A stretch of DNA of 64,000 nt from a virus (IMGVR_UViG_3300033076_001232:142435-206434); one strand, 5' to 3'; positions 3,429 to 62,727 are shown, counted from the stretch's first letter. Notes: generated by a model from the sequence alone, not told the origin. Made by a program: numbers and translations.

Positions 3429-3917
3429 GGGCCCGCTTTGGATTTGACAGGCGGAGGTAGTTCTTTGAGATGCAGGCAGTCTTAGATTGGAAAGACTTTA
3501 ATTACCTATCAAACAATAAACGCAAACGTTTACAATTCTGAGGATATCATGAGTATCCCAACTTCACTTACTCGCTCTGTAGTAGCTGAAGAGGTTGAGC
3601 TAGCTGTTGCAGCCTAACCAATTGGCGGCAACTGCCAATTATAAAAGAAAGTTGCAAGCTGGCAAGAAAAAAGGTTCGTAGTATTGCCTATTTGACATTG
3701 AGTGGAACCTTGAGGATTAGTTCAATACCCATTAAGATCGTCACTATCAATGTCAGTGAAACTTGGTTAGTACCGGGGAGTAAACCAGACCGAGCATTAA
3801 GTCTGAAAGAAAAAAGAAACGCACCAAAAGTTTGTTGATGTCGAAAAATCAACTAAGCCTGTGAATGAGTCCAATGGACATTCGATCTGGACGAGGGTTC
3901 GACTCCCTCCGGGTCCA
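3429..3917 (+). ncRNA. ssrA: tmRNA (transfer-messenger RNA, SsrA)
   Basis: 5' acceptor gggcccg pairs with 3' cgggtcc giving G3:U70; 5' ggatttgacagg matches conserved GGAUUCGACGGG; T-arm gaggg-ttcgact-ccctc; internal tag ORF ending gct gtt gca gcc taa (..LAVAA*) with uagua-GCU resume context; helix after stop codon. Confidence 0.85.
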
Positions 3918-3968
3918 CTTTTTTGAAACATTTTAGATAAATACTAATATAAAAATTAAATTATTATT

Positions 3969-5302: not shown

Positions 5303-6055
5303 ATGATAGTATGTTTTATATCGGATACTCACTGTCAGCATTCAAGTAGAAAATTAGAATTTTATCTGGACAGAATTCTGGAGAAATATCCAGATTCTAC
5401 TATAGTCCACTGTGGCGATATTTCAAGTCGGGGTAGATTTACAGAAATAGAAGATTTTCTTTCGTGGTATTCAGACCTAGGGTTTAAAAATAAAATAATG
5501 ATCTCAGGTAATCACGATTTCTTCTTCGATTATGATCGTACACCAATAACTGATATGGGTAGATCTAGACACGGAAATCCGATGTATTCGAAGGAAGATG
5601 TTTACGATTTACTTTCAAAATATCCACAGATAATTTATTTGAATGATTCGGGTATCACCTTGGATGGAATAAACTTTTGGGGTAGCCCAGTAACCCCGTG
5701 GTTCCATGACTGGGCTTTTAATAGGACTGAGGAAACGATAATAGATCATTGGAAAATGATTCCTGATAATACGAACATCCTGATAACTCATGGTCCTCCA
5801 AGAGGTATATTAGATCTTACCTACAATGGATACACCAATGTAGGTTGTATAGAACTAGCTGGAAAAACTTTTGATTTAAAAGAACTTATGGTCCATGCTT
5901 TCGGACATATTCACGAGGCATTTGGTATTGAGACTGTCGATGAGGTAACCTATATAAATGCTTCGTTTCTGAATTTCAACTATCAGCCTTTAAATTCACC
6001 GATAATATTTGACACTGAGAGTAAAAAATCTTATATTTTTTCGATTCAGGATTGA
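5303..6055 (+). CDS. Calcineurin-like metallophosphoesterase
   Basis: GD (CGDISS), GNHD, THGPP, GHIHE metallophosphatase motifs in order. Confidence 0.7.
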   Translation: MIVCFISDTHCQHSSRKLEFYLDRILEKYPDSTIVHCGDISSRGRFTEIEDFLSWYSDLGFKNKIMISGNHDFFFDYDRTPITDMGRSRHGNPMYSKEDVYDLLSKYPQIIYLNDSGITLDGINFWGSPVTPWFHDWAFNRTEETIIDHWKMIPDNTNILITHGPPRGILDLTYNGYTNVGCIELAGKTFDLKELMVHAFGHIHEAFGIETVDEVTYINASFLNFNYQPLNSPIIFDTESKKSYIFSIQD

Positions 6056-21425: not shown

Positions 21426-22391
21426 ATGGCAGAAATACTAAATCTGGTAAATCCGAAAGATAGCTTATCCTTTAAATATGAGATAAGCAGGTTCCCTGAC
21501 GGCCAGCAATCATTAAGACTGATTGAGGATGGTTACAACACATTCAATTCACTAAAGAATGCGGCGATCAAAATAAAGTCAAGACTAAACAATTTCCAGG
21601 ATTTGGAAATTATCATTTGCGCAACACAAGCTCTTAGGGAGGTTGGAGTGAATGATATCAGTCTTTACATTCCTTATTGTGTTGGTGCTAGAAGCGACCG
21701 AAAATTTTCAGAGGGTGGAATCAATTATGTTAAGACGGTGATTGCACCTATTATCAATTCACAGGGCTACTCGAGTGTCACAATACTTGATCCACATTCT
21801 GATGTGCTTGAGGCTTGCATTAACAATTTCAAAAAGATAAACAATTTCAATTTAGTCAATTTTTCTTTGAAAGAAATCCTACTTGAAGATTGGAGAAAAA
21901 CTTCGGACGATATTGGTTTCGAAGGGTGGTACAAATACGACTGGCTAAAGAACCCGGACATTGTCCTAGTTTCACCCGATGCAGGTGCTTATAAGAAAAT
22001 TTTTGATGTTGCAGAAAATTTCAGAATTAAGAGCATAGCAACAGCGGTCAAAGTTCGAGATTTGGAAACTGGAAAGATCCTGAGAACGGAGGTTCCAAAT
22101 TTACCCATTAGCACAACAGGAAAAGAATTTAGGTATGTAATTATCGATGACATTTGTGATGGCGGTAGAACATTCATTGAATTGGCAAAAGCGATCAAAG
22201 CTAGTCGCCCAACTGCTGAGATCTATTTAGTGGTCACTCATGGAATCTTCAGTGCTGGGTATGCTGAATTAGGAAAATATTTTAATGGAATCTATTGTAC
22301 AAACTCGGTAAAGGACATCGTACACGATCCAGAAGACACCGACCTCGAAAGAGAAATGAAGGAAAAAGTAAAACAATTAAACGTATTCTAA
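21426..22391 (+). CDS. Ribose-phosphate pyrophosphokinase-family protein (Prs-like; possibly ADPR-pyrophosphate synthase type)
   Basis: FPDGQ, IPYCVGARSDRK (cf. IPYFGYARQDRR), ILDPHS, VSPDAGA, VIIDDICDGGRTF PRPP-binding loop. Confidence 0.7.
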   Translation: MAEILNLVNPKDSLSFKYEISRFPDGQQSLRLIEDGYNTFNSLKNAAIKIKSRLNNFQDLEIIICATQALREVGVNDISLYIPYCVGARSDRKFSEGGINYVKTVIAPIINSQGYSSVTILDPHSDVLEACINNFKKINNFNLVNFSLKEILLEDWRKTSDDIGFEGWYKYDWLKNPDIVLVSPDAGAYKKIFDVAENFRIKSIATAVKVRDLETGKILRTEVPNLPISTTGKEFRYVIIDDICDGGRTFIELAKAIKASRPTAEIYLVVTHGIFSAGYAELGKYFNGIYCTNSVKDIVHDPEDTDLEREMKEKVKQLNVF

Positions 22392-23149: not shown

Positions 23150-23694
23150 TGGAACAAACAGCAATAGAAACAGGATACAACGAGATTGAAGGAGATTTAA
23201 TCGAGTTTGCAAAACAGAGGATGTTTGATGTGATAGCACATGGATGCAATTGCATGAGCACGATGGGAGCTGGTATTGCTCCGCAAATGGCAAAAGCTTT
23301 CGGATGCGACCGATTCGAAATGGAAATGTGGGGGTCAACAATTGAAAAGCTCGGTAACATAGATTACCAGACTTTCGTAATTGGAGAATTTGCAATCTGG
23401 AACCTGGAAGATGCCAAGAATAATCGAAATGAACACGAACTAACTGTGGTTAATGCCTACACCCAATATAATTACGGTAGAAATCACGCAGATGGTCACG
23501 CAGCACCTTTTGATTATGATGCTTTCACTATTTGTGTCAGAAAGATGAACGAGGTGTTTAGAGGAAAGCATATTGGACTTCCGATGATAGGTGCAGGACT
23601 AGGAGGAGGTAATTGGAATAGAATCAAAGAGATCATTCGTTACGGACTCAGAGACTGTAAAATAACAGTTGTAATCTATAAACCTAAACAATAA
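23149..23694 (+). CDS. Macro-domain (ADP-ribose binding/processing) protein
   Basis: VIAHGCNCMSTMGAGIA and IGAGLGGGNW glycine-rich loops typical of macro domains. Confidence 0.55.
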   Translation: MEQTAIETGYNEIEGDLIEFAKQRMFDVIAHGCNCMSTMGAGIAPQMAKAFGCDRFEMEMWGSTIEKLGNIDYQTFVIGEFAIWNLEDAKNNRNEHELTVVNAYTQYNYGRNHADGHAAPFDYDAFTICVRKMNEVFRGKHIGLPMIGAGLGGGNWNRIKEIIRYGLRDCKITVVIYKPKQ

Positions 23695-24209
23695 TGAAAG
23701 TAATCAAACCTACAACCGAAAACCAATCAGTAAGATCCAACGATGTCTCGGTATTTTTAGCTGGCTCGATCGAAATGGGATCTGCTGAGGATTGGCAATC
23801 TAAACTCGAAGCCAAGTTAAAGGAAACTTTAGACCACGAGGATATTGTCCTATTCAACCCTCGGAGGGAATCCTGGGATTCCTCATGGGAGCAAAGAGAA
23901 ACAAATCCTGAATTCAATTACCAGGTTAATTGGGAATTATCAGCATTAGAAATGGCTGATATTATATTCTTGAATTTCTTACCCGACACAAAGTCTCCGA
24001 TATCTCTATTGGAGCTTGGAAAGTTTGCAAATAGCGGAAGAATGATTGTTTGCTGCCCTGATGGATTCTGTAGAAAAGGAAACGTCGAGATTGTCTGCAG
24101 TAGATATAACGTTCCTTTTTACGGATCTCTAGACGAAGCAATAGGATCATTGGTTACACGAATACACAAAACAAGAGTTTCTAAAAATTCTTTTTTTCTT
24201 TTACCCTAA
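23694..24209 (+). CDS. Nucleoside 2-deoxyribosyltransferase / Rcl-family protein
   Basis: VFLAGSIE N-terminal motif and SLLELGKFANSGRMIV catalytic-Glu motif. Confidence 0.55.
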   Translation: MKVIKPTTENQSVRSNDVSVFLAGSIEMGSAEDWQSKLEAKLKETLDHEDIVLFNPRRESWDSSWEQRETNPEFNYQVNWELSALEMADIIFLNFLPDTKSPISLLELGKFANSGRMIVCCPDGFCRKGNVEIVCSRYNVPFYGSLDEAIGSLVTRIHKTRVSKNSFFLLP

Positions 24210-29448: not shown

Positions 29449-31020
29449 ATGAAAGGAATAAACCCAGCCCTTCTAACCGACGGTTATAAAACAGGGCACC
29501 ATCAGCAATACCCGGAGGGAACAACTCTAGTGTATTCTAACTTTACCCCAAGAAGTAACAAGTATGCACCTAAGGGATGCGATCATGTTGTTTCTTTTGG
29601 TCAGCAACTTATCATGAAGCAGATTCACGAGAGCTTCCAAAAAGATTTCTTCGATCAGCCTAAAGATGAGGTGTGCTCGGAAATTAAGAGAGAGCTTTCT
29701 CTTTATCTAGGAGTCGATTACGATGTTAGTCACTTCGAAGCCCTTCACGATCTTGGATATTTACCTATTAAGGTTAAAGCAATCAAAGAGGGAACTTTAG
29801 TGCCAATCAAGGTTCCTGTCTTGACTATCTATAATACGGATCCCAACTTTTACTGGGTAACCAACTATTTGGAAACACTAATCTCAAATCTTCTTTGGAA
29901 GCCAATGACTTCCGCAACAATTGCTTACCAATACAAGAGAGTTCTTACCGATTGGGCTCTTAAAACCGACAAGGAAAACAAAACATTTGTTCAGTGGCAA
30001 GGTCACGATTTCTCTATGAGAGGTATGGATTCAGTGGATGCTGTAATTTCTTCCGGTCTTGGACACCTAACATCTTTTACTGGAACAGATTCCCTTCCTG
30101 CAATTTACGGAGCTCGTAAGTATTACGGAGCGGAAGGATTTGTCGCAGCGTCAGTGCCAGCAACAGAACACTCGGTAATGTGTGCTGGCGGGAAAGAGGA
30201 TGAGATTGAGACATTCCGAAGACTGATTAAGACTTACCCTGCTGGTATCTTGTCAGTAGTATCTGATACTTGGGATTTGTGGAAAGTGTGTACGGAGCAT
30301 GTGGTTACTTTGAAAGAAGAGATTTTGGCTCGTGATGGTAAGTTGGTTATTCGTCCTGATAGTGGTGACCCGGTTGATATCCTTTGCGGTACAGAAGATT
30401 ATACAAAATCTAAATTACCTTATGATGAGGTTAAAGATGTAGAAGTTATGCACCCTAGCCAAAAAGGTGTAATTGAACTTCTTTGGGATGTATTTGGAGG
30501 AACTGTTAACGAACAAGGTTACAAAGTACTTGATCCACATATCGGAGCAATCTATGGCGATAGCATTACTATCGATCGTGCTGAGCAAATCTGCAGCAGA
30601 TTAGCTTCAAAGGGATTTGCATCAACAAACGTAGTGCTTGGGGTAGGATCTTTCACTTACCAGTACAACACCCGCGATACATTTGGTTTTGCAATGAAGG
30701 CAACTTATGTTGAGGTTAAGGTTCCTAAATATGGTGATTTTGCGGACCAAGGGTTGAATACCGAAATTGAAGGTAGAGAAATCTTCAAAGATCCAATCAC
30801 CGATGATGGAACGAAGAAATCTGCAACTGGCTTACTAAGCGTAGTTAGCCGTCCAGGTGAAGGTTTAACCCTAGTTGATAAGTGCGACTGGAAACATGAA
30901 AATGTCGGAGCATTGGAAACAATCTACCACGACGGAAAATCTAGCTCCGAGATCACTCTTTCTGAAATTAGAAACAATCTTGAATTTTCTTTGATTAAAG
31001 AGAGAGAAATTATTTTTTAA
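29449..31020 (+). CDS. Nicotinamide phosphoribosyltransferase-family protein (NAMPT/NadV-like; possibly Namat-type)
   Basis: VPATEHSVM, SFTGTDS, IRPDSGDPV motifs conserved with NAMPT. Confidence 0.7.
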   Translation: MKGINPALLTDGYKTGHHQQYPEGTTLVYSNFTPRSNKYAPKGCDHVVSFGQQLIMKQIHESFQKDFFDQPKDEVCSEIKRELSLYLGVDYDVSHFEALHDLGYLPIKVKAIKEGTLVPIKVPVLTIYNTDPNFYWVTNYLETLISNLLWKPMTSATIAYQYKRVLTDWALKTDKENKTFVQWQGHDFSMRGMDSVDAVISSGLGHLTSFTGTDSLPAIYGARKYYGAEGFVAASVPATEHSVMCAGGKEDEIETFRRLIKTYPAGILSVVSDTWDLWKVCTEHVVTLKEEILARDGKLVIRPDSGDPVDILCGTEDYTKSKLPYDEVKDVEVMHPSQKGVIELLWDVFGGTVNEQGYKVLDPHIGAIYGDSITIDRAEQICSRLASKGFASTNVVLGVGSFTYQYNTRDTFGFAMKATYVEVKVPKYGDFADQGLNTEIEGREIFKDPITDDGTKKSATGLLSVVSRPGEGLTLVDKCDWKHENVGALETIYHDGKSSSEITLSEIRNNLEFSLIKEREIIF

Positions 31021-37065: not shown

Positions 37066-37371
37066 ATGGACAAAGAAAGTCGCAGAATAAAAATTAAAGG
37101 CTCCGAGGGAACACCAGTGGATATGTCTAACTGGTACGAGAATCAAAAAAAGAGAGAGAATGCAGAGAGGGAGAGGAAAATAAGGGAAAGAGAAGACGAG
37201 AAGAAAAGAATTGAATCTATAGAGTGTCCGTTCTGCAAATCAACAGACAAGATACATCACATCAAAAGACAAAGCAATGGAATCTATGGTCCAGGTCACA
37301 GTAGCAGGGTAACCGAAGATTATTTGATTTGCAAGGGATGTGGGATTCACTATAGCGATATAAACAAATAA
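37066..37371 (+). CDS. Zinc-ribbon protein (CPFCKS...CKGCG)
   Basis: Two CxxC pairs. Confidence 0.45.
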   Translation: MDKESRRIKIKGSEGTPVDMSNWYENQKKRENAERERKIREREDEKKRIESIECPFCKSTDKIHHIKRQSNGIYGPGHSSRVTEDYLICKGCGIHYSDINK

Positions 37372-37383
37372 AAACAGAATAAC

Positions 37384-37932
37384 ATGGAAACAAAAATTGA
37401 TCCTAGAGAGATTGAAAAAATCGAAAAATTAACAGGGGGTAAAATCGGAACTCATACCTTTGGTCCAAACCAAGAACACACTTTGGAGAATTCCTTTCTA
37501 TCTCAGGATGGAACATATATTGGAGACTTCGAAAGAGCTCAATGGTACGTTGAACAAAAATTGATGGTCGACGAGGAATACCCACATGGAGTTGCTGCCG
37601 TTATTAAGGACGAAACCTACGGAACAGAAATTCCGGAAATAGAAGGCATGTATGGTTACACTCACAGAGGGGGTCAAATGTTTAAAATCGGTGATCGATT
37701 ATTTGACGAAAGTTACAAACCACAGAAGGAGGACTATCCCGAGGATGAATGGTCGAAGTATGAGGAGAGCTTTAAAAAATCTTACGATGAGGCAGACGAC
37801 CTAAATAAAAAATGGATGGATAACGACGGAATCTCTTATGTTATCCCATTTAAAATGAGAGGGAGAAAGAATATCGAAACTATGAGGGAGGCTTTCGAAG
37901 CAGCTAGAAACATGTCAAAGTATTTAAGTTAA
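37384..37932 (+). CDS. Hypothetical protein
   Basis: ORF track. Confidence 0.45.
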   Translation: METKIDPREIEKIEKLTGGKIGTHTFGPNQEHTLENSFLSQDGTYIGDFERAQWYVEQKLMVDEEYPHGVAAVIKDETYGTEIPEIEGMYGYTHRGGQMFKIGDRLFDESYKPQKEDYPEDEWSKYEESFKKSYDEADDLNKKWMDNDGISYVIPFKMRGRKNIETMREAFEAARNMSKYLS

Positions 37933-41600: not shown

Positions 41601-41921
41601 ATGGCGAGAAAAGTAACGTGGAAATGTGATATTTGTGAATCTGTACAGGAATCATACTCAAATAAAAGATGGGATATGGATGTTTGCGAATGTGGCAAAT
41701 CTGGATATGACCTGGAAGAATGGTATTCCCGAACTATGGGTAAAATATCGATAATATCGGAGGAAGTAATTCCCGCGGAGGGTGAGATTAAATTATCTGA
41801 GGATGATTCTAAAATTTTTATAGATTCGATTTTAAATCCGGCGGAGCCGAATGAAAAATTGAAAAAAGCTTTCGAAGATTACAAAAATAATTCAAATGAG
41901 ACAGACGGGGAGAACATCTAG
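41601..41921 (+). CDS. Zinc-ribbon protein
   Basis: CDICES...CECGKSG. Confidence 0.45.
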   Translation: MARKVTWKCDICESVQESYSNKRWDMDVCECGKSGYDLEEWYSRTMGKISIISEEVIPAEGEIKLSEDDSKIFIDSILNPAEPNEKLKKAFEDYKNNSNETDGENI

Positions 41922-42691: not shown

Positions 42692-43597
42692 ATGAAAAAT
42701 CTTATAAATTTCGAATCCTGGATTTCTTTGAATGAAGCTATAGTGATGCCTCCGGAAATATACGGAGTAGATCCAGACAAATATGGGGAAACTATAGGAA
42801 TTATTGACAAGACAGCCAAAAATTATAAGATAAATGATCTGAATTTACCACCAGAGAAACCAATTGGTGATATAGCTAAGTCTGCATGGGCTAATTTAAA
42901 TGTACCAACTCGAGCAATTTCAAATACGGAAGGGGGAAATTTAGGTTGCGCTGCAGCAACTTCCATTATGTTCTATAGAGCAACTGGTCTTCCGATCGTT
43001 AAGGAGTACTCAAAAAATCCAATAGTTCTTGGAACCTCTGCACTTTGGAGCGCATTTACAGGGAAGGATAAGGATAGATGGGAAATTATTAAAAATTGGA
43101 GAACTGACTATAAGCCGGGTGACATAATATTAACAAGTAGAGGTCCAGGTGGAGCCGGACACGTTGGTGTGGTTGTTGAAGACGGGAAGATAATATCAAA
43201 TTCGTCAGGAGGATTTAACGGAGATAAGAAGGGCCAAATTGAGCTAAATTATGATATAAAATCCTGGGAAAGTATTGCCAAGAAAAATCCAACACAAACA
43301 GCTTGTTTCAGATACAAAGGGGACTATTTGGACAAATGGGGAGGATCTCCTATTATGACCCCAATAGGGACCAATGATTCCGATGCTAATAAGAAATCAG
43401 AGGAACTTCCTAATTCTGTAATTAAATACAATGAAATTCTATATCTAAAACCACTGGATGCAAAAGAAATGTATTCAGTTCTAGGCGATCAGAGAACCAT
43501 GGATAAGTTAATTATCAAATCCGTTGAGAATGAGGAACCTGCTAAAAAGAAAAGAATTCTAGGATTAATCAAATCCAAAAAATATAGCGATAAATAA
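42692..43597 (+). CDS. CHAP/NlpC-P60-like cysteine peptidase domain protein (cell-wall hydrolase candidate)
   Basis: Cys in GNLGCAAATS and His in GAGHVGVVVEDG with CHAP-like spacing. Confidence 0.5.
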   Translation: MKNLINFESWISLNEAIVMPPEIYGVDPDKYGETIGIIDKTAKNYKINDLNLPPEKPIGDIAKSAWANLNVPTRAISNTEGGNLGCAAATSIMFYRATGLPIVKEYSKNPIVLGTSALWSAFTGKDKDRWEIIKNWRTDYKPGDIILTSRGPGGAGHVGVVVEDGKIISNSSGGFNGDKKGQIELNYDIKSWESIAKKNPTQTACFRYKGDYLDKWGGSPIMTPIGTNDSDANKKSEELPNSVIKYNEILYLKPLDAKEMYSVLGDQRTMDKLIIKSVENEEPAKKKRILGLIKSKKYSDK

Positions 43598-43653: not shown

Positions 43654-44016
43654 ATGAGAAAAATTAAGATTCTTTACGATTTTCTTAGATTGTGGATTAT
43701 GTGGGGAGATAGGAAGGAAGCATGGCAAGACGCAAATTCTATAAACGATCCTAATTTCCAGAAAGAACTGGAAGAGATATCCAATAAGTTAGATCAGGTT
43801 CTCTTAGAAAAGAATCCAAATTTTAAAGAAGTCTGTCTTGAGATATCTCAAAGACTTTCCAATTTACCTTACGATAATGGAGACATATCAGACATCGGTA
43901 ACGAGATAGGTATTGTTCTGGGTAAACATATCCAGGATGGGTCTTTCGGATGGGAAAGAGGAGATTTAAATTCTGGACTAAATCATGGTATATCAATAGC
44001 TAATGGAACACACTAA
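43654..44016 (+). CDS. Hypothetical protein
   Basis: ORF track. Confidence 0.4.
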   Translation: MRKIKILYDFLRLWIMWGDRKEAWQDANSINDPNFQKELEEISNKLDQVLLEKNPNFKEVCLEISQRLSNLPYDNGDISDIGNEIGIVLGKHIQDGSFGWERGDLNSGLNHGISIANGTH

Positions 44017-45163
44017 GAATATGAATAACATAGACAAGCAGTACTTAGATCTACTCCAGGATATATTGGACAATGGAGTAGAAAAAAGAGATAGAACCGG
44101 AACGGGGACTATCTCAGTTTTTGGTAGACAGATAAGACATAAGATGTCGGAAGGATTTCCTTTGCTTACGACGAAGAAGATGTACTGGAAAGGAATCGTA
44201 ACCGAGCTACTTTGGTTTTTAAGAGGTGATACCAATATTAAATTCTTGGTCGATAACAACTGCCACATCTGGGACGGCGACGCATACAAGAACTATCAGA
44301 GCAAACAAAAGAAACCTAAGGTCGGAGACTGGGAAAATTACATAGATTGCTACTGTGGACATACCGATACATGTTCTTGCGGAATTATGTCAAAGACAGA
44401 ATTTATAGAAAAAATTAAATCAAGCAAAGTGTTCTCAGATAAATGGGGAGAGCTCGGTCCTATTTATGGAAAGCAGTGGAGATCATTCGGTCCATCTGAC
44501 GAATACTATAATGGAACAGAGTGGGTTTATATAAGCCCAATAGATCAGATAGCTAAAGCTATAGAAATGATAAAGGAGGATCCAGATTCTAGAAGAATTA
44601 TGGTTACCGCATGGAATCCCTCAGATTTGCCTAAATCTGTACTCCCACCTTGCCATTATGGATTTCAATTTTATACAAGAGAGTTGAGCGATGAAGAAAG
44701 AGTAAAGTTATATGAACAAAAAACAAACACAGATACTTCATTCTTTCCAGTACTTACAGAAACCTTAGCTTTCCATAATATACCAACCAGAGCAATCTCT
44801 TTAATGTATAATGCCAGAAGTCAAGATGTTCCTCTAGGAACACCGTTTAATATAGCTTCATATGCTCTTCTTCTTTCGATAATTGCAGAAATAACTAACA
44901 CTGTACCGGAAGAAGTTATAGCTAACATGGGGGATTGTCACATCTATCTAAATCAGATAGATGGCATAAAGGAACAGATAAGCAGGTCTCCAAAAGAGTT
45001 GCCTCAATTGCAGATCAACAAGGAACCATTTGACAATTATCTTTTCGCCTCACATTCAGAAAAAACGTCAATCAATCATTTAATTAACGATTTGAAGCCG
45101 GAACACTTTAATATTTCGGGATATGATCCACATCCAACGATAAAGATTCCATTGAGTAATTAA
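44003..45163 (+). CDS. thyA: Thymidylate synthase (ThyA) with two internal insertions
   Basis: DRTGTGT, LLWFLRGDTN, DLGPIYGKQWR, DPDSRRIMVTAWN, PPCHYGFQFY, PFNIASYALL, GDCHIYLNQ, YDPHP all in ThyA order; ~45-aa Cys-rich insert and ~30-aa insert. Confidence 0.85.
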   Translation: MEHTKNMNNIDKQYLDLLQDILDNGVEKRDRTGTGTISVFGRQIRHKMSEGFPLLTTKKMYWKGIVTELLWFLRGDTNIKFLVDNNCHIWDGDAYKNYQSKQKKPKVGDWENYIDCYCGHTDTCSCGIMSKTEFIEKIKSSKVFSDKWGELGPIYGKQWRSFGPSDEYYNGTEWVYISPIDQIAKAIEMIKEDPDSRRIMVTAWNPSDLPKSVLPPCHYGFQFYTRELSDEERVKLYEQKTNTDTSFFPVLTETLAFHNIPTRAISLMYNARSQDVPLGTPFNIASYALLLSIIAEITNTVPEEVIANMGDCHIYLNQIDGIKEQISRSPKELPQLQINKEPFDNYLFASHSEKTSINHLINDLKPEHFNISGYDPHPTIKIPLSN

Positions 45164-46370: not shown

Positions 46371-46856
46371 ATGACATTTGATAAATTTTCTAAAATCATA
46401 GAGAGATTGAAGAACCACTCTGAAAGGGTTCATACCGCTTACTCTCTTAAGATTGACCTTATAGATTTCGACGACGATCTAAATAGAATTATAGACGACC
46501 TCATTAAGGAGATATACGGAGAAACTGGGTATGATTGGTTTTCCTGGTTCTGCTTTGAAAATGATTACGGAAATAAAGATTGGAAATCCCTTCCTATATT
46601 AGGGACATCTAGGAAAATAGACGGTAAGGTAGCAAACATCGGCAGAATCAAAAACGGAAAGATCGGTATAGGAGCATGGGACGAGAACGGTAATCCCATT
46701 TGCTATGATGTAAGATCAACCTGGGAGTTCTTGGAAAAAAACTACTCCAGGGTACAAAAAAATGAAGGAGTAGATCCTCAGATTTGGGAAACAATCAAGG
46801 AAAGCGGGGATAAGATAAATCAGAAAACAAATAAAAACAATAAAAAAGAGGAATGA
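46371..46856 (+). CDS. Hypothetical protein
   Basis: ORF track. Confidence 0.45.
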   Translation: MTFDKFSKIIERLKNHSERVHTAYSLKIDLIDFDDDLNRIIDDLIKEIYGETGYDWFSWFCFENDYGNKDWKSLPILGTSRKIDGKVANIGRIKNGKIGIGAWDENGNPICYDVRSTWEFLEKNYSRVQKNEGVDPQIWETIKESGDKINQKTNKNNKKEE

Positions 46857-47155
46857 AAAAGTTTTACTTAACCGTCGGAATTGCTTTTTTGACAACAAGT
46901 CTTTTTTCTCAGAAATCAAAAAATCCAGAGGAAAGAAAAGTAGTTTATGCCGACTTCGCTTATGCAACCCCGAGCAGAGACACGCTATTTTTATCCAAGG
47001 ATGACACCATCTCTATGAATACCTATCGAACATGGGAGATGGATCCCACATGGAAGGGAGTCAATCCAGTTATCCTTTTTGTACCTCAAGAATTTATCAA
47101 TTCTAGAAAATCACAGGGAGTAATAACTTCGGGTGATACCGGATCTAGAAATTAA
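46853..47155 (+). CDS. Small secreted/lipoprotein-like protein
   Basis: MKKFYLTVGIAFLTTSLFSQ signal peptide. Confidence 0.45.
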   Translation: MKKFYLTVGIAFLTTSLFSQKSKNPEERKVVYADFAYATPSRDTLFLSKDDTISMNTYRTWEMDPTWKGVNPVILFVPQEFINSRKSQGVITSGDTGSRN

Positions 47156-47158
47156 AGG

Positions 47159-48115
47159 ATGAGAAAGATAAGAAAGATAATTATAATGAGGAACGAGAGA
47201 ATTTTAGAAAGAACAGAAGAACCTATGGAAGAGGATAAGAACAATTGTGACTTCGTACAGTGGACGATTATAGGAGACGGCAGTTTTGCACCATCCAACA
47301 AAACACTAGAAATTTTAGATCCAGGTTTATATGAACCCGCCTACAATAATAGGATGGGTGAATGGACACTTATGAAGATGAAGGTTAATACCGATGAATT
47401 GTTCGAGTTACCAACTCCAGAGATTGCTGAGATCCTAAATGATCTTAAGAAATTCTGGGAAAGAAAGGATGAGTATAAGAAATTTAAGATTCTTCATAAG
47501 AGAGGCATTCTTCTATACGGAGATCCTGGATGTGGTAAATCTGGAATTCTCCAGCTTTGTATGAAGCACATCATAAAAGATCTTAATGGTCTGGTTATAA
47601 ACCTTAAGGACGAGGAAACAGTAAGAGGTTACATAGGTATGGTTGATCGTCTAAGACAGATAGAGCCAAACAGACCAATTATAGTTATCCTTGAGGATAT
47701 AGATTCTATAGCATCGGAGGGCAATTTCGTAACTTCTCAACTTCTAAATATGCTGGATGGTATAAAGCAAACTGAAAATGTTGCTTATATAGCCACAACC
47801 AACTATCCAGAAAAATTGGAAGAGCGTATTACAAATAGACCTTCCCGTTTCGATAGAAGATATTACGTTTCACCTCCATGTGATCAGGTTAGAAGATCTT
47901 ACCTTGAGAGAAAAACTAATGGAGAAATGGGAGAAGAAGAAATTGAAATGTGGATCAAAGACACTGAAGGTATGTCTCTATCGCATCTGAAGGAGCTTCT
48001 TATTTCAGTGAAGGTTTTAGAAAATCCTTATGATCAGGCGATAGATCATCTAAAAGGTATGAAATCAAAGCCAAGAGGTAAAGGACAAAAACAAGTAGGA
48101 TTTGGTAGCAATTAA
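47159..48115 (+). CDS. AAA+ ATPase (classic AAA clade)
   Basis: Walker A GDPGCGKS, Walker B IVILEDID, second region of homology NRPSRFDRR. Confidence 0.75.
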   Translation: MRKIRKIIIMRNERILERTEEPMEEDKNNCDFVQWTIIGDGSFAPSNKTLEILDPGLYEPAYNNRMGEWTLMKMKVNTDELFELPTPEIAEILNDLKKFWERKDEYKKFKILHKRGILLYGDPGCGKSGILQLCMKHIIKDLNGLVINLKDEETVRGYIGMVDRLRQIEPNRPIIVILEDIDSIASEGNFVTSQLLNMLDGIKQTENVAYIATTNYPEKLEERITNRPSRFDRRYYVSPPCDQVRRSYLERKTNGEMGEEEIEMWIKDTEGMSLSHLKELLISVKVLENPYDQAIDHLKGMKSKPRGKGQKQVGFGSN

Positions 48116-48118
48116 TTT

Positions 48119-48334
48119 ATGGAACTCACAAAGGATCAAATAAAGCACATAGACGAAGCTTTAGACTTCTACCCAGATCTAACCATGGATACCATTGACG
48201 AAATCCACGAGGAGATACTAGACAACATGATAGACGATTTTATAATCGATCTATCAGACGACGAGGAAGGGGATTTGCACATGACATACTCTAATTTGGT
48301 TTACGAAAACCTGGAGTCAAGAATATCTCAATGA
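48119..48334 (+). CDS. Small acidic protein
   Basis: ORF track. Confidence 0.4.
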   Translation: MELTKDQIKHIDEALDFYPDLTMDTIDEIHEEILDNMIDDFIIDLSDDEEGDLHMTYSNLVYENLESRISQ

Positions 48335-48355
48335 TACCGGATCTAAACTTTTAAA

Positions 48356-48565
48356 GTGGGAACAAGAGACCATTTAATTGGATGTAAGGTAACTACTGAT
48401 TATTACGAGAACGAGGTTTTTAAAATAGTCGATGTCCGAGTAGGAGAATTCCTGCTAAGAGGAGATTGGAGCGGAGGTACTCACAGTGTTTGCCAGGAGA
48501 GCTGGTATCCAGAAGAAAAATGTAAATTTCTATTAGTAGAGGTTGAATGGCTAAAAATAAAATAA
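48356..48565 (+). CDS. Small hypothetical protein
   Basis: ORF track. Confidence 0.4.
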   Translation: MGTRDHLIGCKVTTDYYENEVFKIVDVRVGEFLLRGDWSGGTHSVCQESWYPEEKCKFLLVEVEWLKIK

Positions 48566-48575
48566 AAAGTATAAA

Positions 48576-49445
48576 ATGAAAGATGCACTAGGCGACAGAA
48601 TGAAGGACTTTTACGAAGACCGAACACGTTACAAGTTGGCACGTCGCACCAACACGATTATCCGCATTGACGGAAAAGCTTTCCACACTTACACAAAGGG
48701 TTTAAAGAGACCTTTTGATGAAGGTTTAATGGAGGACATGAATAAGACAACTGAGTTTCTATGTCAGAATATTCAAGGAGCAAAATTTGGATACGTTCAA
48801 TCAGATGAGATTTCTATTCTCATCACTGATTACGATGATATGAGTACACACGCTTGGTTTGATGGTAACCTACAAAAGATGTCATCCATTGCTGCATCAT
48901 TGACAACTGCAAAGTTTAACCAATTAAGAATGGCAAGATTCTGTAGGAATGAAGGAATCGAGCCAAAGTATAGAGAAGATTCTTACATCAGTAACTCTCA
49001 AATCGGGGATTTCAAACTTGCAATGTTTGATGCACGTGTTTTTCAGATTCCTTACCAAGAAGAAGTGATTAACTACTTTATCTGGAGACAGCAAGATGCT
49101 ACAAGGAATTCTATCTCTTCTGTTGCCCAATCTTACTTCTCACCAAAAGAACTCCATGGTAAGAAAACAAGTGAAATGCAGGACCTGTTAATGTTACAAA
49201 AGAATATTAACTGGAACGATTTTACCCCAAGGGAGAAGAGAGGATCATTGATTAGAAAAGTTGAGAAAAAATTTGTTAGAACTAATCCTATCGACGACGG
49301 TAAGACCTATCCAATTGACACGAACCAAACTTATACAAGAAATGTTTGGGAAGCTGATGTAGAGACTCCAATCTTTTCCCAAGAAAAGGGATATCTTCGT
49401 TGGCTAATGCCACAAACACAGGACGACAAAACTCCAATCTTGTAA
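48576..49445 (+). CDS. Thg1-like protein (tRNA-His guanylyltransferase family, 3'-5' nucleotidyl transferase)
   Basis: IIRIDGKAFHTY, GYVQSDEISILI, WRQQDA align with Thg1 VVRLDGRNFHRF / GQSDEYS / WRQAD. Confidence 0.7.
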   Translation: MKDALGDRMKDFYEDRTRYKLARRTNTIIRIDGKAFHTYTKGLKRPFDEGLMEDMNKTTEFLCQNIQGAKFGYVQSDEISILITDYDDMSTHAWFDGNLQKMSSIAASLTTAKFNQLRMARFCRNEGIEPKYREDSYISNSQIGDFKLAMFDARVFQIPYQEEVINYFIWRQQDATRNSISSVAQSYFSPKELHGKKTSEMQDLLMLQKNINWNDFTPREKRGSLIRKVEKKFVRTNPIDDGKTYPIDTNQTYTRNVWEADVETPIFSQEKGYLRWLMPQTQDDKTPIL

Positions 49446-49447
49446 TT

Positions 49448-50083
49448 GTGAAAGTTATATTTTTAGATATCGATGGAGTAATGAACTCCCAAGTTTTCTA
49501 TAAAGAAAGATACGATCGAAGATGGAGGAAACCAATAACTTATTGGTTCGAGTTGAGAAGATTGTTTAGAAAGGCTTTTGGAATAAAACCGAAAGCCACT
49601 TCTATGGCCGATTATGTTATCCCCGATTCACACTTTGAATTTGATTATCAATTTGAAAGATTGAAAGAGGAAACCTGCAAAGAAAAATGGGGATGGCTTA
49701 GTGAATGGTGTAACGAAACTGGAACTAAGATATGTGTTTCATCAACATGGAAAAATCACTTCGGAACTAAAGAATATGTTTCGACCCCTGAAAAATGGGA
49801 AGATGCTCTTCAACTTTTAGGATTTCTACCAGGAACATTTGTCGGAGTTACTGGAAATAGAAGGAACATAAGGGGCGAAGAAATTGCCGAATGGTTAGAA
49901 CAAAATCCCAACGTGGAAGATTATGCAATTTTAGATGATGACTCAGATATGTTACCCGAGCAATTTAAGAAATTCCACCATTGCGACAGCTGGTTTGGAC
50001 TATCTCCAAATCATCTCTACCGAATAGATAGACAGTTTGAAGGTAAGTCTAACTACGAAAAACTAACAAAAACAATAATATGA
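49448..50083 (+). CDS. HAD-superfamily phosphatase (RNA-repair-associated HAD type), paralog A; GTG start
   Basis: MKVIFLDIDGV motif I; start chosen by identity with paralog B 5' end. Confidence 0.55.
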   Translation: MKVIFLDIDGVMNSQVFYKERYDRRWRKPITYWFELRRLFRKAFGIKPKATSMADYVIPDSHFEFDYQFERLKEETCKEKWGWLSEWCNETGTKICVSSTWKNHFGTKEYVSTPEKWEDALQLLGFLPGTFVGVTGNRRNIRGEEIAEWLEQNPNVEDYAILDDDSDMLPEQFKKFHHCDSWFGLSPNHLYRIDRQFEGKSNYEKLTKTII

Positions 50084-50301
50084 GAGCGGAAGAAGCAAGA
50101 AAAATAGCGGAACAATTCACACCAGATGTAAAGGAAGTTCTTGAAATAGTAAAGAAAGAAGCAACGAATGGTGGATTATCCACTTCAGGAGCCTCAAGGT
50201 TTCTTTTTAACGAGAGGGTAAGAAAATATCTCGAAAAATTAGGTTACCGGATAAAATTTGTGGAGGCTCAGAGAGACGGATACTGGGAAATTAGCTGGTA
50301 A
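50080..50301 (+). CDS. Small hypothetical protein
   Basis: ATGA overlap. Confidence 0.4.
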   Translation: MRAEEARKIAEQFTPDVKEVLEIVKKEATNGGLSTSGASRFLFNERVRKYLEKLGYRIKFVEAQRDGYWEISW

Positions 50302-50302
50302 G

Positions 50303-50848
50303 ATGAAAGTTATATTTTTAGATCACGATGGCGTGATATGTCTTGCCGACCAATGGGGAGGAAGATACAAGAAGAAGGGATACGATAGTAATCCAGAAAC
50401 ACCCATGGATATCAGAATGGATAGCTTTGATAAAAAAGCTGTTAATGTACTAAACAAGATCATAGATAAAAGTGGGTGCGAGATAGTTATCTCGTCGGAC
50501 TGGAAAAGATGGGGAACTTTGGAGCAGATTCAGGAAATGTATCGAACCAGGGGAATAAAAGAACCCATTGGACTAACCCCATTTTTCTCGGATCTTCTAA
50601 AAGAAAGAAAGGTTCCTATGGCAGCAGAGTTTACCATGAGGGATTCTTTAGAAATTGAGAGGCACTATGAAATATTAGATTGGCTGAAGAATCACCCTGA
50701 GGTAACCCATTGGGTCTCGGTAGATGATCTTGATATGTCTAAGAGAGATTGGTGGGGGTTAGAAAATTTTGTTCTGTGTAAAAGACCACATAGAGAAGGG
50801 ATAAAACAGTGTGGACTTAAGGATAAAATACTAGAGTATCTACTCTGA
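50303..50848 (+). CDS. HAD-superfamily phosphatase, paralog B
   Basis: MKVIFLDHDGV motif I, ISSDWK motif II-like. Confidence 0.55.
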   Translation: MKVIFLDHDGVICLADQWGGRYKKKGYDSNPETPMDIRMDSFDKKAVNVLNKIIDKSGCEIVISSDWKRWGTLEQIQEMYRTRGIKEPIGLTPFFSDLLKERKVPMAAEFTMRDSLEIERHYEILDWLKNHPEVTHWVSVDDLDMSKRDWWGLENFVLCKRPHREGIKQCGLKDKILEYLL

Positions 50849-50887
50849 TATCATATATGAATAGTATCAGGGGAGATATATAATAGT

Positions 50888-52408
50888 ATGGAAAATATCA
50901 TACCTTTTAGCACATACTCATCTTTAAACGAGTCAGTAGATCCAAATGCTACTAATATCATTATAGGTGATTCTCAATCACCTCTGATGGCTTTAAATAT
51001 CAAGAACGCAAGTCTTATTTCTAAACAACAGGGGGAATCTTCTCTATGGAAAGGAGGAATGGGCGTAAAATGGTTAAAGGATGCGGTTTCAAAGTATCCA
51101 GTTTCACCAAGAATACAAAACGTTGTGATCAACATTGGTACAAATGGAGGATTTAACAAGAGAGATGATATTAAAGGTCTATACGATCAACTAAAAAGAG
51201 CATTTCCTAACGCTAGATTTTTACAATTACAAGGAACATGGGGATGGGGTGGTAATAAAAACGTAACCGAATCCCAGGTTAAAGATTATTACAAGGAGTT
51301 CGAAAAACAGGGAGCAATAATAGTTTATCCTGCTAAGGGATACGTAGCAACAGATAGAGAAGCACATACAAATAGACCGATTCTAGCCAAACTTGGTGCT
51401 GAGGTTGATAGATTGATAAATACCCCAGGCAAATCTGTATCTTCTGCGGTTTCATATTCATCAACATCGAGCAGTCAATCAACAAACACACAGCAATATT
51501 CAGCTGGGTCATCTAATGTTATTGGAGGTATAATTTCTAGACCCGGTGATCCCTACAAATACAAGGTAGAGAATGATCACTGGATGGCTAAAAGGGACGA
51601 TCACACCCGATGGTACGAAATTACAGGTAAGGACTTCAAACCTGGATACCAGGTGTCTATAGATATTTTAGATACCGAGAACCCAAATGCAAGGACAGAA
51701 AAAGCTCCAAAAAGAACCGTTAAGAATAACGGAGGTAATGTTAACAATGGTGGTAATGTTAACAATGGTGGTAATATTAATAATGGAGGTGGTAGCGAAG
51801 AGGATAACATAGATCAGGTTCTTCTTCCTTTTGGAAAGGGTGCGGATCCAGAAAAATTAGATCCTAAAATATCTAAAGAATTTAATTTTCATCTTATCCC
51901 GGATGGGAAAGATACCAACTATAGAAGTGCTCAGCTCCCTATGAAACACCTGAAAGACATGTACATCAAATACGGAGTTAAGAGAGTAATTAGATTAAAC
52001 GGGGACGGGAAAGATGCTAAGCATCATCTACTTAATAAGCCAGTAACTATCCAACAAGAAAGAGATCTATGTAAAGAGATCGGATGTGAATTTCATAAGT
52101 TATCAGCAACTAAGGATCAGGAAAAAATAAATCAGTTACTTGCACAGGGAAATACTCTCATCCACTGTGCTCACGGAGCAGACAGAACAGGAGGAACAGT
52201 TGGTGGGTATTTCTATGATACGAAGGTTAATCCGAGTCTAACTACAACTGATGCAATATGGAAGTACACTACCCAATATAATAACTGGAACTCTATGGCT
52301 AAGAATAGACCAAAGAAATTTGCAGATGGTGGTTACTTAACATTGGCTCAAAAATTTGGAGTGGCCGATCTAGAAACAGCAAACAAATTAGCAAAAAAAT
52401 ACAAATAA
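50888..52408 (+). CDS. Fusion protein: N-terminal SGNH/GDSL-like hydrolase, G/N-rich repeat linker, C-terminal cysteine phosphatase (HCxxGxxR; RNA 5'-phosphatase/PTP-like)
   Basis: IIIGDSQS block I; NNGGNVNNGGNVNNGGNINNGGG linker; LIHCAHGADRTGG P-loop. Confidence 0.55.
   Translation: MENIIPFSTYSSLNESVDPNATNIIIGDSQSPLMALNIKNASLISKQQGESSLWKGGMGVKWLKDAVSKYPVSPRIQNVVINIGTNGGFNKRDDIKGLYDQLKRAFPNARFLQLQGTWGWGGNKNVTESQVKDYYKEFEKQGAIIVYPAKGYVATDREAHTNRPILAKLGAEVDRLINTPGKSVSSAVSYSSTSSSQSTNTQQYSAGSSNVIGGIISRPGDPYKYKVENDHWMAKRDDHTRWYEITGKDFKPGYQVSIDILDTENPNARTEKAPKRTVKNNGGNVNNGGNVNNGGNINNGGGSEEDNIDQVLLPFGKGADPEKLDPKISKEFNFHLIPDGKDTNYRSAQLPMKHLKDMYIKYGVKRVIRLNGDGKDAKHHLLNKPVTIQQERDLCKEIGCEFHKLSATKDQEKINQLLAQGNTLIHCAHGADRTGGTVGGYFYDTKVNPSLTTTDAIWKYTTQYNNWNSMAKNRPKKFADGGYLTLAQKFGVADLETANKLAKKYK
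51731..51793 (+). repeat. 18-nt tandem repeat (ggtggtaatgttaacaat x ~3.5) encoding GGNVNN units
   Basis: Direct reading of sequence. Confidence 0.9.
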
Positions 52409-52409
52409 A

Positions 52410-52697
52410 ATGAAAGTAGAAGTTATCGATTTTTACGCCGATTGGTGTAATCCTTGCAAGGCTATGAGTCCTGCAATTCAAGCACTCCAAGAAGAGTTTC
52501 CGGAAGGAAATGAATCGGGTGTTACAATCACAAAAATTAATGTGGATTCAAATCCAGAAGAAGCAAAGAAATACAATATTAGATCTATCCCAACACTAGT
52601 TTTTTTAAAGGAGGGAATAGAGAGCGAGAGAGCATCTGGTGCTAAAACTAAAGATTTTATCAAGGAAAGAATCAATGAGATTATTTTAAACAACTAA
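52410..52697 (+). CDS. Thioredoxin
   Basis: YADWCNPCK (CxxC) active site; ~95 aa. Confidence 0.8.
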   Translation: MKVEVIDFYADWCNPCKAMSPAIQALQEEFPEGNESGVTITKINVDSNPEEAKKYNIRSIPTLVFLKEGIESERASGAKTKDFIKERINEIILNN

Positions 52698-52717: not shown

Positions 52718-52756
52718 AATCCCGGAGTTATTAACAACTTCGGGATTTTTTTTTGG
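52718..52756 (+). terminator. Rho-independent terminator
   Basis: 10-bp stem aatcccggag/cttcgggatt (one G-U), T9. Confidence 0.7.
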
Positions 52757-53497: not shown

Positions 53498-54106
53498 TTA
53501 GATTATATCTGTTGACTCCAACAGAGTGTACGAGAAAGCATTCCCGTGTATTTTAGCAGCCTTCTTACAGATAGCCATAAATTGATCGAAATCTTTGACT
53601 CTTTTAAAGACCTGACATCCTTCGCTCCAATTTTCTACCCATGCTGAATCGGTTCCAGCCTTATGAATATTAATACCAAACATTCCTGTGTCTGTTACCT
53701 TTTCTTCGAAAAGTAGGTCTCTGTTCTTGTCTCTCCATACCGTTACGTTTCCGTTTCTTTGACATAGAGCTTCATACTTACCCTGGTGTTTGTCAATCTT
53801 CCAAACTCCTCTATATTGTCCTGGCACCAATCTAGCTACACCTTTATTGTTATGGAACTCCATAACACCTTTTTTACCCGGATCGCAAGTACCAGCCCAA
53901 CAAAAGAATTGCCAGTTACCAGATTCATCTTTGTATGATATAGTTAAGTGATCGTCGAAAACGTTTGTAACTTTGTCTGCGACACTAGGAGCATTATTTC
54001 TTACCCCAACAATGTTTACATCATAGGTTTTATTAGAAGAATCGTCAAACCATTTGTAACCTTTACTTGTAACAGCCTTTTCAATCTGTTCTCTTGTGTA
54101 ACTCAT
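53498..54106 (-). CDS. YkuD-like (L,D-transpeptidase fold) protein; cell-wall peptidase candidate
   Basis: H(x16)SEGCQV resembling YkuD H..S.GC.R catalytic arrangement. Confidence 0.35.
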   Translation of the reverse strand: MSYTREQIEKAVTSKGYKWFDDSSNKTYDVNIVGVRNNAPSVADKVTNVFDDHLTISYKDESGNWQFFCWAGTCDPGKKGVMEFHNNKGVARLVPGQYRGVWKIDKHQGKYEALCQRNGNVTVWRDKNRDLLFEEKVTDTGMFGINIHKAGTDSAWVENWSEGCQVFKRVKDFDQFMAICKKAAKIHGNAFSYTLLESTDII

Positions 54107-61896: not shown

Positions 61897-62727
61897 CTAC
61901 ACGGAGGTAAGAGCTTTATAGTATTCTTTGAAGTGTTTGATTCTATCAGCTAGACCTATAGTTCCTCCATTTACTCTTTTAGTAACTGCGGTAACAGTAG
62001 CATCATCTGCACCTCTATCGCATATTGACCACAATTTGTTTGAATCGAAGAAAAATGCTGCAGAAGCCAGAGGATATTTCGTTGCAACTAAATCCGGATT
62101 TGCCACACAATCTTCTCCAATGAACTTAGTAAAGTTAGTGTAGTTTGATTTTCCAGTTAATTGAATATAACCTCTACCTCTAAATTTGAAACCTTCTTTA
62201 GAAGCTTCGTCTCCATTACCCATTCTTGATGCGTAAACCCTGGATGCAATCTTCTCAGGTTGACGAGCATAAGATTCATTTAGATTTCCAGGAAAGTACT
62301 TACCGAATATCTTTTTCAAACCATCAGCAGAATAATTTAGGTTTTCTGTAACTGCCTTAAATCCTCCTGATTCGTGACCGCACTGCGCTAAAAAGTGGGC
62401 TAGTCTTAGGTTATTAGTGATGTTGAATTTTTTTGCAGTGTCTGGGATTTGTGCTAAAACTGCATCAGGAACGTGTCCTCTCAGACCTTCTAAATTTAAA
62501 TTTTCCATCTTAGGTACTGCTACCGGAGCTGATGCAGGCGCAGATTCACCAAACATTTTACTCCAGGTTCCAGGTCCTACAACACCGTCGGCTGTTAAAC
62601 CATTAGCTGCCTGCCACTCTTTTACCTTAGCCTCCGTTCCCGCTCCAAATACTCCGTCTGCACTTAATCCTAGTTTTTGTTGAAGCTTTTTCACTTCTTC
62701 TCCATTGGATCCTTTCTTTAGTAACAT
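61897..62727 (-). CDS. Endolysin: two PG_binding_1 repeats + GH19 (chitinase-like lysozyme) catalytic domain
   Basis: LQQKLGLSADGVFGAGT / LTADGVVGPGT repeats; HFLAQCGHESGG and FRGRGYIQLTGKSNY GH19 motifs. Confidence 0.75.
   Translation of the reverse strand: MLLKKGSNGEEVKKLQQKLGLSADGVFGAGTEAKVKEWQAANGLTADGVVGPGTWSKMFGESAPASAPVAVPKMENLNLEGLRGHVPDAVLAQIPDTAKKFNITNNLRLAHFLAQCGHESGGFKAVTENLNYSADGLKKIFGKYFPGNLNESYARQPEKIASRVYASRMGNGDEASKEGFKFRGRGYIQLTGKSNYTNFTKFIGEDCVANPDLVATKYPLASAAFFFDSNKLWSICDRGADDATVTAVTKRVNGGTIGLADRIKHFKEYYKALTSV

Follow-up and report, generated by a model that had tools for sequence, protein, structure and literature searches.

The stretch of viral DNA analysed here (IMGVR_UViG_3300033076_001232, 64,000 nt, referred to as a whole as the window) contains a run of tightly packed genes between positions 47159 and 52697, and this raises the question of whether these genes act together as one RNA repair system. 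An initial annotation had described them as a cassette of seven co-oriented genes for the repair of RNA 5' ends, including a Thg1-like protein (TLP) and several phosphatases. All of the open reading frames (ORFs) named by that annotation are present on the + strand where it had placed them, but there are nine ORFs rather than seven, all on the + strand, and a 73-aa ORF (50080 to 50301) had been overlooked. Nearly all of the domain calls also hold: AAA, Thg1, two copies of HAD_SAK_2 and Thioredoxin by Pfam, and a fusion of an SGNH hydrolase with a Cys phosphatase by motifs and modelled folds. We think it probable that the stretch forms the 3'-terminal part of a long, co-oriented block of accessory genes and is a gene mosaic rather than one machine, with an intact TLP, a pair of HAD_SAK_2 phosphatases (HAD1 and HAD2) loosely partnered with it, and bystander genes around them. 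The identical sequence also occurs in metagenomic assemblies, the longest contig being 221,881 bp, so the phage genome is at least 221 kb. The phage is a jumbo, T4-like phage; the window encodes a Gp23-like capsid protein, and a minus-strand gene with a type IX secretion system (T9SS) sorting domain hints that the host is probably a member of the Bacteroidota.

The TLP is encoded from 48576 to 49445 on the + strand and is assigned to the 3'-5' nucleotidyltransferases. It matches the Pfam Thg1 profile PF04446 with an E-value of 2.5e-27; the score is 95.8 bits where the cutoff is 29.2, and the match spans positions 2-130 of the 130 in the profile. It also matches phrog_4717 (2e-88). The Thg1C profile PF14413, which the annotation had also called for, scores 19.8 bits against a cutoff of 26.3; residues 145-270 of the protein align with residues 122-229 of the TLP of Bacillus thuringiensis (BtTLP) at 83 bits. 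BtTLP (4kgk) is the best solved relative (E 2.3e-63, both domains aligned), whereas human, yeast and Candida Thg1 give E-values of just 4e-8 to 4e-9, and because of this difference the window TLP is placed in the TLP (repair) clade and not in the eukaryotic Thg1 (G-1 addition) clade. It shares with BtTLP (PDB 4KGK/4KGM) about half of the residues over the aligned core, the two-domain layout and the three catalytic carboxylates. It differs in having an insertion of about 24 aa after residue 121 and a longer C-terminal segment, and in being phage-encoded and known here from sequence alone. The carboxylates are D32, D77 and E78, which align with D30, D75 and E76 of BtTLP (D29, D76 and E77 in the human enzyme), the essential metal-site residues (PMC3701042), and all three are invariant across 19 phage TLPs. 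The initial annotation had made its Thg1-like assignment hang on these residues, and they are in place. The 48576 product looks catalytically intact and active.

BtTLP favours 5'-truncated tRNAs, on which ATP or GTP activates the 5'-monophosphate before templated 3'-5' addition (PMC3701042), and by analogy with it we infer that the window TLP carries out templated 3'-5' repair of 5'-truncated tRNAs. It would activate the 5'-phosphate of such a tRNA using ATP or GTP and then refill the lost 5' nucleotides in the 3'-5' direction, with the 3' strand of the acceptor stem as the template. Such genes are no rarity among phages: by tblastn, 164 phage records in GenBank contain one, annotated in most cases as tRNA-His guanylyltransferase. 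We surveyed the surroundings of TLP genes in 31 viral and 80 genome loci (111 in total). In the 80 genome loci the immediate (+-1) neighbours include Metallophos (6), RNA_ligase (4), RlaP (3) and RtcB (2), Metallophos being the commonest, and in phages the +-2 neighbours include HAD_SAK_2 (3), RtcB (2), RlaP (2), RF-1 and PTH2. A tie between the TLP clade and RNA repair elsewhere is therefore supported.

The gene for HAD1 (49448 to 50083, + strand, 211 aa) starts with GTG 3 nt past the stop codon of the TLP gene, and that for HAD2 (50303 to 50848, + strand, 181 aa) follows it. Both match PF18143 (HAD_SAK_2) well above the cutoff of 27.5 bits, HAD1 with 1.6e-19 (71.1 bits) and HAD2 with 3.9e-24 (86.0 bits), and HAD1 additionally matches phrog_1818 (1.6e-25). 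The catalytic motifs are kept in the pair (DHDG/DIDG, SSD/SST and DD/DDD); HAD1 has DIDG, SST and DDD together with a basic insertion after motif I. In an alignment of 34 sequences D7, D9, D141 and D142 are invariant and S64/S65 is present in at least 90%, and the structural model has the HAD Rossmannoid fold (pLDDT 94). We take PF18143 to be a family defined from RNA-repair multidomain proteins, and HAD_SAK_2 to be a HAD family assigned computationally to RNA-end healing. The two proteins are most plausibly phosphomonoesterases that would clear 3'- or 2'-phosphates from damaged RNA ends. Among the 120 HAD2 homologues listed there are no Rosetta-stone fusions, all of them being standalone.

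HAD1 and HAD2 are only about 25-29% identical to each other, and orthologues of HAD1 (68-78% identity) lie directly 5' of HAD2 orthologues in five other loci (L048, L053, L064, L083 and L085). Because of this low mutual identity and the head-to-tail arrangement elsewhere, the two genes form an old, separately conserved paralogue pair, to judge from their sequences, and not a recent duplication. Homologues of the 161-aa protein encoded from 46371 to 46856 are found directly 3' of HAD2 orthologues in six loci (L045, L048, L053, L071, L097 and L106), a pairing that is more consistent than that of HAD2 with the TLP.

Immediate adjacency of a TLP and a HAD gene occurs in two orders. In the window and in its close relative (L004) the TLP gene comes first, and in L009/L010 the HAD gene overlaps the start of the TLP gene. 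We retain a loose partnership between the TLP and a phosphatase because non-homologous phosphoesterases (Metallophos) recur beside TLPs. The partnership of the HADs with the TLP would then be loose and facultative, with Metallophos holding the same position beside TLPs elsewhere. Which substrates these enzymes act on, whether the TLP and the HADs cooperate and whether their purpose is counter-defence are matters that we infer.

The remaining question is how far the rest of the run belongs with these three genes. The initial annotation took co-orientation and tight packing as the mark of a cassette, but both are common to the whole block from base 1 to about 53.3 kb. The + strand of this block holds 76 ORFs; the median gap between them is 12 nt, two in three gaps do not exceed 50 nt, and the spacing within 47159 to 52697 is -4 to 39 nt. 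Since the same spacing is seen throughout the block, the packing is local background and nothing more. The left border at 47159 is arbitrary, because the upstream ORFs 46371-46856 and 46853-47155 are just as tightly spaced (gaps of -4 and 3 nt). The right border, in contrast, is real, because there is a strong terminator-like hairpin 3' of the thioredoxin gene (52718 to 52747, + strand), with a stem of 12 pairs and then TTTTTTT. The transcription unit probably ends here, and there is no comparable site in 46371-52697. A scan of the sequence for sigma-70 promoters gave fewer sites than shuffled controls, the sigma-70 consensus being inapplicable to the probable Bacteroidota host.

Gene neighbourhoods give the same picture. 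A further survey was anchored on HAD2 in 80 viral loci, or 79 when the close relative is left out. Across the 31 and 80 viral loci and the 80 genome loci, the set described as one cassette is syntenic only in L004, a contig of 290 kb on which most proteins share 70-85% identity with those of the window. It keeps the AAA gene, the small acidic ORF, the TLP gene, the HAD2 gene, the gene for the 506-aa fusion protein and the thioredoxin gene in order, without HAD1 and two small ORFs. None of the neighbours of the window TLP gene is present beside viral TLPs of 72-79% identity (L003, L005-L008), and the neighbours of HAD2 in the HAD2-anchored loci are heterogeneous. It is because of these three observations and the uniform packing that we regard the stretch as a mosaic, in which the AAA ATPase, the 506-aa protein and thioredoxin would be bystanders.

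The AAA gene (47159 to 48115, + strand) encodes a classical-clade AAA ATPase of 318 aa, or of 309 aa if it starts at 47186 as the gene callers have it. It matches PF00004 (5e-17, 63 bits), with Walker A (GDPGCGKS) and Walker B (ILEDID) motifs visible. The best solved relatives are the D2 domain of VCP/Cdc48, Afg2 and Bacillus subtilis YjoB, with E-values of about 1e-24 to 6e-28 (6e-28 for a VCP-like ATPase, 7.5e-24 for YjoB). There are 2816 homologues; the best 120 of these 2816 share about 60% identity or more with the window protein, are about 320-335 aa long, stand alone and are encoded on large phage contigs. Of the 31 viral loci anchored on the TLP, the close relative alone has a homologue. 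By homology this protein is probably a lineage-wide ATPase of the protein-unfoldase type and lies outside the RNA-repair set. In four loci (L037, L042, L049 and L050) a different small HAD-like protein, with DLDDT as motif I, is encoded one or two genes 3' of the AAA homologue.

The 506-aa protein (50888 to 52408, + strand) has three modules: an SGNH esterase (residues 1-177), a small beta domain (about 210-280) and, after a low-complexity N/G linker, a Cys phosphatase (about 320-506). In the N-terminal part GDS, Gly, GTN and His are invariant in the family; in the C-terminal part the P-loop HCAHGADRTG is invariant and agrees with the pattern HCX5R(S/T). The structural model shows an SGNH fold and a dual-specificity phosphatase (DSP) fold. 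The SGNH domain is closest to the peptidoglycan (PG) O-acetyl enzymes OatA and PatB. In homologues the fusion partners of this module are Amidase_2 plus PG_binding_1, PG_binding_1 by itself (1e-12), SleB-type Hydrolase_2 and Beta-lactamase2, and those of the phosphatase module are GDPD and a weakly matching PG_binding_1; the two modules are also found in reverse order. The gene is near a TLP or HAD2 only in L004 (1 of the 31 TLP-anchored viral loci and 1 of the 80 HAD2-anchored loci), and one family member is encoded on a phage contig without RNA-repair genes.

The only Pfam Cys phosphatase profile matched by the 506-aa protein is Y_phosphatase3 (E 0.0066). PTP-SAK (PF22784), which we take to be the Cys phosphatase domain of Swiss-Army-Knife (SAK) repair proteins, was considered for the C-terminal module and rejected, the matches of homologues being sub-threshold (E 0.014-0.047) and weaker than those to DSPc or Y_phosphatase3. 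Because the modules shuffle with cell-wall domains and the PTP-SAK matches are sub-threshold, the protein most likely has the cell envelope as its target and stands outside RNA repair. The proposal that the phosphatases of the run heal RNA ends finds support for the two HADs, which fall in HAD_SAK_2, but not for the Cys phosphatase, whose modules are tied to cell-wall domains.

The thioredoxin gene (52410 to 52697, + strand) encodes 95 aa with a WCNPC motif and matches PF00085 (5e-24, 84.7 bits). A homologue is near HAD2 in just 2 of the 80 loci, and the protein is, from its sequence, a generic redox protein. A role as reductant of the Cys phosphatase was also considered and rejected: of these two loci one (L085) is without a homologue of the 506-aa protein.

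Several observations weigh against a loose partnership with bystanders around it. Linkage of TLP and HAD_SAK genes is rare: of the 111 TLP-anchored loci about 4 (L004, L009/L010 and L121) have a HAD_SAK gene at a distance of 6-8 kb or less, and a TLP lies within 6 kb of HAD2 in 3 of the 79 HAD2-anchored loci. By a rough estimate, chance would bring two genes of a 200-kb phage to within +-8 kb in about one case in ten, and proximity at this range is not clearly above chance. Within the same 6 kb, HAD2 is accompanied more often by a HIGH-type nucleotidyltransferase (w45666, 16 of 79) and by NAMPT (6) than by the TLP; the other counts are 10 for AAA and 6 each for HAD1 and o46371. We found no measured activity of any HAD_SAK_2 protein in the literature, and a structure search fails to separate the HAD_SAK_2 model from small-molecule HADs. 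The logic of 5'-end repair is also weak here. The expected 5'-end partner is a kinase and not a phosphatase, because TLPs need a 5'-phosphate or 5'-triphosphate, and there is no RNA ligase, polynucleotide kinase (PNK), RtcB or RlaP in the 64-kb window, which is part of a genome of at least 221 kb. The reasoning of the initial annotation, which made phosphatases the partners in 5'-end repair, suffers from this. Three further points speak against calling the other genes bystanders: the order of AAA, acidic ORF, TLP, HAD2, 506-aa gene and thioredoxin retained in the close relative, a locus (L085) with a TLP, an AAA-like gene, HAD1, HAD2 and thioredoxin within 8 kb, and the presence of AAA-family genes within 5 kb of TLPs in four genome loci. 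The immediate adjacency of TLP and HAD in two orders is the sole linkage evidence for a real link, and it is suggestive.

The co-location counts would fit the HADs being phosphatases of small molecules of nucleotide or NAD+ metabolism, such as nicotinamide mononucleotide (NMN), nicotinic acid mononucleotide (NaMN) or deoxynucleoside monophosphates (dNMP), with the adjacency to the TLP incidental. We regard this as somewhat unlikely. Consistent with it, in three of the loci where a TLP and a HAD gene are near each other (L075, L077 and L085) the HADs lie directly 3' of NAMPT and a Nuc_deoxyri_tr2-like gene, and the window itself encodes NAMPT, Prs-like, Nuc_deoxyri_tr2, thymidylate synthase (ThyA) and HIGH-type nucleotidyltransferase proteins. 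However, the strength of both PF18143 matches, the immediate adjacency in two gene orders and the place of Metallophos as the commonest immediate TLP neighbour, which suggests a real partnership of TLPs with phosphatases, argue for RNA ends, and the basic insertion of HAD1 suits a polyanionic substrate. Moreover, TLPs co-locate with the same metabolic genes. In other phages the TLP adjoins the NAMPT/Prs-like/Nuc_deoxyri_tr2 cluster (L005/L006, L008, L011, L014, L033, L075/L077 and L085) more commonly than it adjoins a HAD, so that a shared accessory island may explain the co-location. In the window the cluster (21426-22391, 23694-24209 and 29449-31020) and the TLP are 17-27 kb apart. The genes of the cluster are of a type that serves NAD+ salvage or reconstitution. 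Because the window also holds genes related to counter-defence and to translation (tmRNA, DUF2828/TROVE-like, Tad6-like, TacA1-like and NAMPT), the TLP and the HADs fit naturally into an accessory island.

We know of no host nuclease that specifically trims tRNA 5' ends, and this counts in favour of the TLP having a routine role in maturing tRNAs or controlling their quality (for example by adding G-1 to tRNAHis, or by editing the 5' ends of phage tRNAs) rather than one in counter-defence. Addition of G-1 is the founding activity of the family, a quality-control role has been proposed for TLPs (PMC3701042), and jumbo phages often carry many tRNAs (PMC7824862). This role is nevertheless unlikely. 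There are no tRNA genes in the 64-kb window, G-1 of bacterial tRNAHis is genome-encoded (PMC2904730), the neighbours of TLPs elsewhere are damage-repair enzymes (RNA ligase, RtcB and RlaP), and the window is rich in counter-defence genes.

A tighter arrangement than the loose partnership would be a dedicated phage module, free of ligase and kinase, in which the TLP and the two HAD_SAK_2 proteins, perhaps with a 69-aa ORF, restore tRNA acceptor ends. The TLP would fill in the 5' strand, and the HADs would free the ends of phosphates that block them. The corresponding host attack would be, for example, trimming of the 5' strand of the acceptor stem, or phosphorylation or pyrophosphorylation of the 3'-CCA, to which no phage counter-measures have been linked yet. 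We judge such a module very unlikely.

Known repair systems differ from this arrangement in their partners. The T4 Pnkp-Rnl1 system acts on tRNALys cleaved by PrrC and seals an anticodon-loop break, whereas repair here would be 5' fill-in; the window is without the kinase and ligase, the HAD family is different, and no 5'-kinase and RNA ligase stand alongside the phosphatases within the 64 kb. Bacterial Thg1 genes have been described together with PNK, Macro and RNA ligase, and Thg1 has been described in large DNA viruses (Anantharaman, Iyer, Aravind 2010; PMC2904730). The window shares with those neighbourhoods a TLP set among RNA end-processing enzymes, but its partner is a phosphatase pair and not a 5'-kinase, with no ligase or Macro gene nearby. 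In the SAK framework, as summarised in PMC7824862 with reference to Burroughs and Aravind (2016), SAK-HADs accompany ATP-grasp RNA ligases and PNKs; compared with that summary, the window has neither. In the window the HAD_SAK_2 genes are not associated with RNA ligase, PNK or other repair domains, and their only repair-type neighbour is the TLP.

It is highly improbable that the whole run of seven to nine genes is a single cassette dedicated to RNA 5'-end repair, in which AAA would remodel the substrate, the TLP rebuild the 5' end, the HADs and Cys phosphatase heal and thioredoxin keep the catalytic Cys reduced. In its favour are the probable co-transcription (translationally coupled spacing, a single terminator after the thioredoxin gene), the gene order in L004, the cluster in L085, the AAA-family genes near TLPs in a few genome loci and the faint matches to the PTP-SAK family. 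Against it, the 506-aa gene is near a TLP or HAD2 nowhere but in L004, its modules recombine with domains of the amidase, PG-binding, SleB-type, GDPD and beta-lactamase-like kinds, the SGNH domain is nearest OatA and PatB, and a relative is encoded on a contig without RNA-repair genes. The PTP-SAK matches are no better than those to DSPc or Y_phosphatase3, AAA has 2816 homologues across large phage contigs with protein unfoldases as nearest solved relatives, and the packing is the background of the whole block.

The initial annotation also held that this combination of genes had not been described. This is narrowly true: we found no description of direct TLP-HAD-HAD adjacency in the RNA-repair literature, a search that did not cover Burroughs and Aravind (2016). 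The parts themselves, however, are already catalogued. Sporadic phage Thg1, standalone SAK-HADs and ROT/TROVE proteins were listed by Iyer et al. (2021) as parts of jumbo-phage RNA repair (PMC7824862), and all of these are seen here. As it stands, the window mainly adds one more jumbo phage to those already known to carry Thg1-like and SAK-HAD genes. If the TLP-HAD pairing is functional, it would be a concrete example of ligase-independent tRNA-end repair by a phage and would hint at defence systems that damage the acceptor ends of tRNAs.

More original is a by-product, the family of the 506-aa protein, in which a PG O-acetyl-type SGNH esterase is paired with a dual-specificity phosphatase. 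Members include P0035-P0045, P0083, P0087 and P0112-P0116, and many have a conserved N-terminal helix; the window protein has no signal peptide. The C-terminal domain of OatA, PatB, Ape-type esterases and phage cell-wall hydrolases are without its DSP and small beta domains, and to our knowledge no characterised enzyme has an architecture of SGNH, dual-specificity phosphatase and small beta domains. Judging from its domains, the family may represent phage enzymes of an unstudied class, whose task would be to strip O-acetyl or phosphate substituents from the cell wall.

Three small ORFs lie among these genes. The 71-aa ORF directly 3' of the AAA gene (48119 to 48334, + strand) encodes a very acidic protein (net charge -19, pI 4.05) without a Pfam or PHROG match; only in L004/L034 is it conserved at this place behind the AAA gene, with 81% identity, and its composition resembles that of small acidic phage inhibitors or DNA mimics. 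The 69-aa ORF (48356 to 48565, + strand, GTG start) likewise has no Pfam or PHROG match and has no counterpart in L004. Homologues lie near TLPs in L027 and L121, which are otherwise unrelated: in L027 (5448-5612) the homologue is 2.5 kb upstream of the TLP, and in L121 (8395-8505) it separates the TLP from a HAD_SAK gene. It is possible that this ORF encodes a small TLP accessory protein. The 73-aa ORF (+ strand) lies between the two HAD genes and overlaps the stop codon of HAD1 by 4 nt. Gene calling on four independent contigs recovers it. It has a weak match to phrog_9673 and nothing else among the PHROGs, and is not present in the other loci with a HAD1-HAD2 pair.

Elsewhere in the window there are further genes of the accessory type, a Metallophos gene among them. 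The tmRNA reported by the initial annotation is real (3429-3920, tag EEVELAVAA), and the gene described as vWA (38-1111) encodes DUF2828 and DUF7788 and is TROVE-vWA-like. Together with a calcineurin-like phosphoesterase (5303-6055) these form, at the window's left end, a second cluster related to RNA or translation. A Tad6-like inhibitor of Type I Thoeris is also encoded (PF25188, E 7.7e-14), and beside it is a weak, sub-threshold match to Lar-like restriction alleviation; the coordinates 37384-37932 and 37066-37371 cover the gene and this neighbour jointly. A protein with a TacA1-like antitoxin domain (41601-41921; PF08681, E 3e-7) could neutralise host TacT-type toxins that acetylate aminoacyl-tRNA. 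The ThyA gene (44003-45163) encodes 386 aa and carries large insertions relative to the canonical enzyme, because the Pfam match takes up residues 12-384 for a profile of 266 positions. Finally, cell-wall enzymes are scattered in the window, at 53498-54106 and 61897-62727 on the - strand and at 42692-43597 on the + strand: a GH19 plus PG_binding_1 protein, a CHAP-domain protein and a 202-aa protein that has no Pfam match and whose HxG...SxGC pattern, on our reading, recalls the YkuD/L,D-transpeptidase fold.

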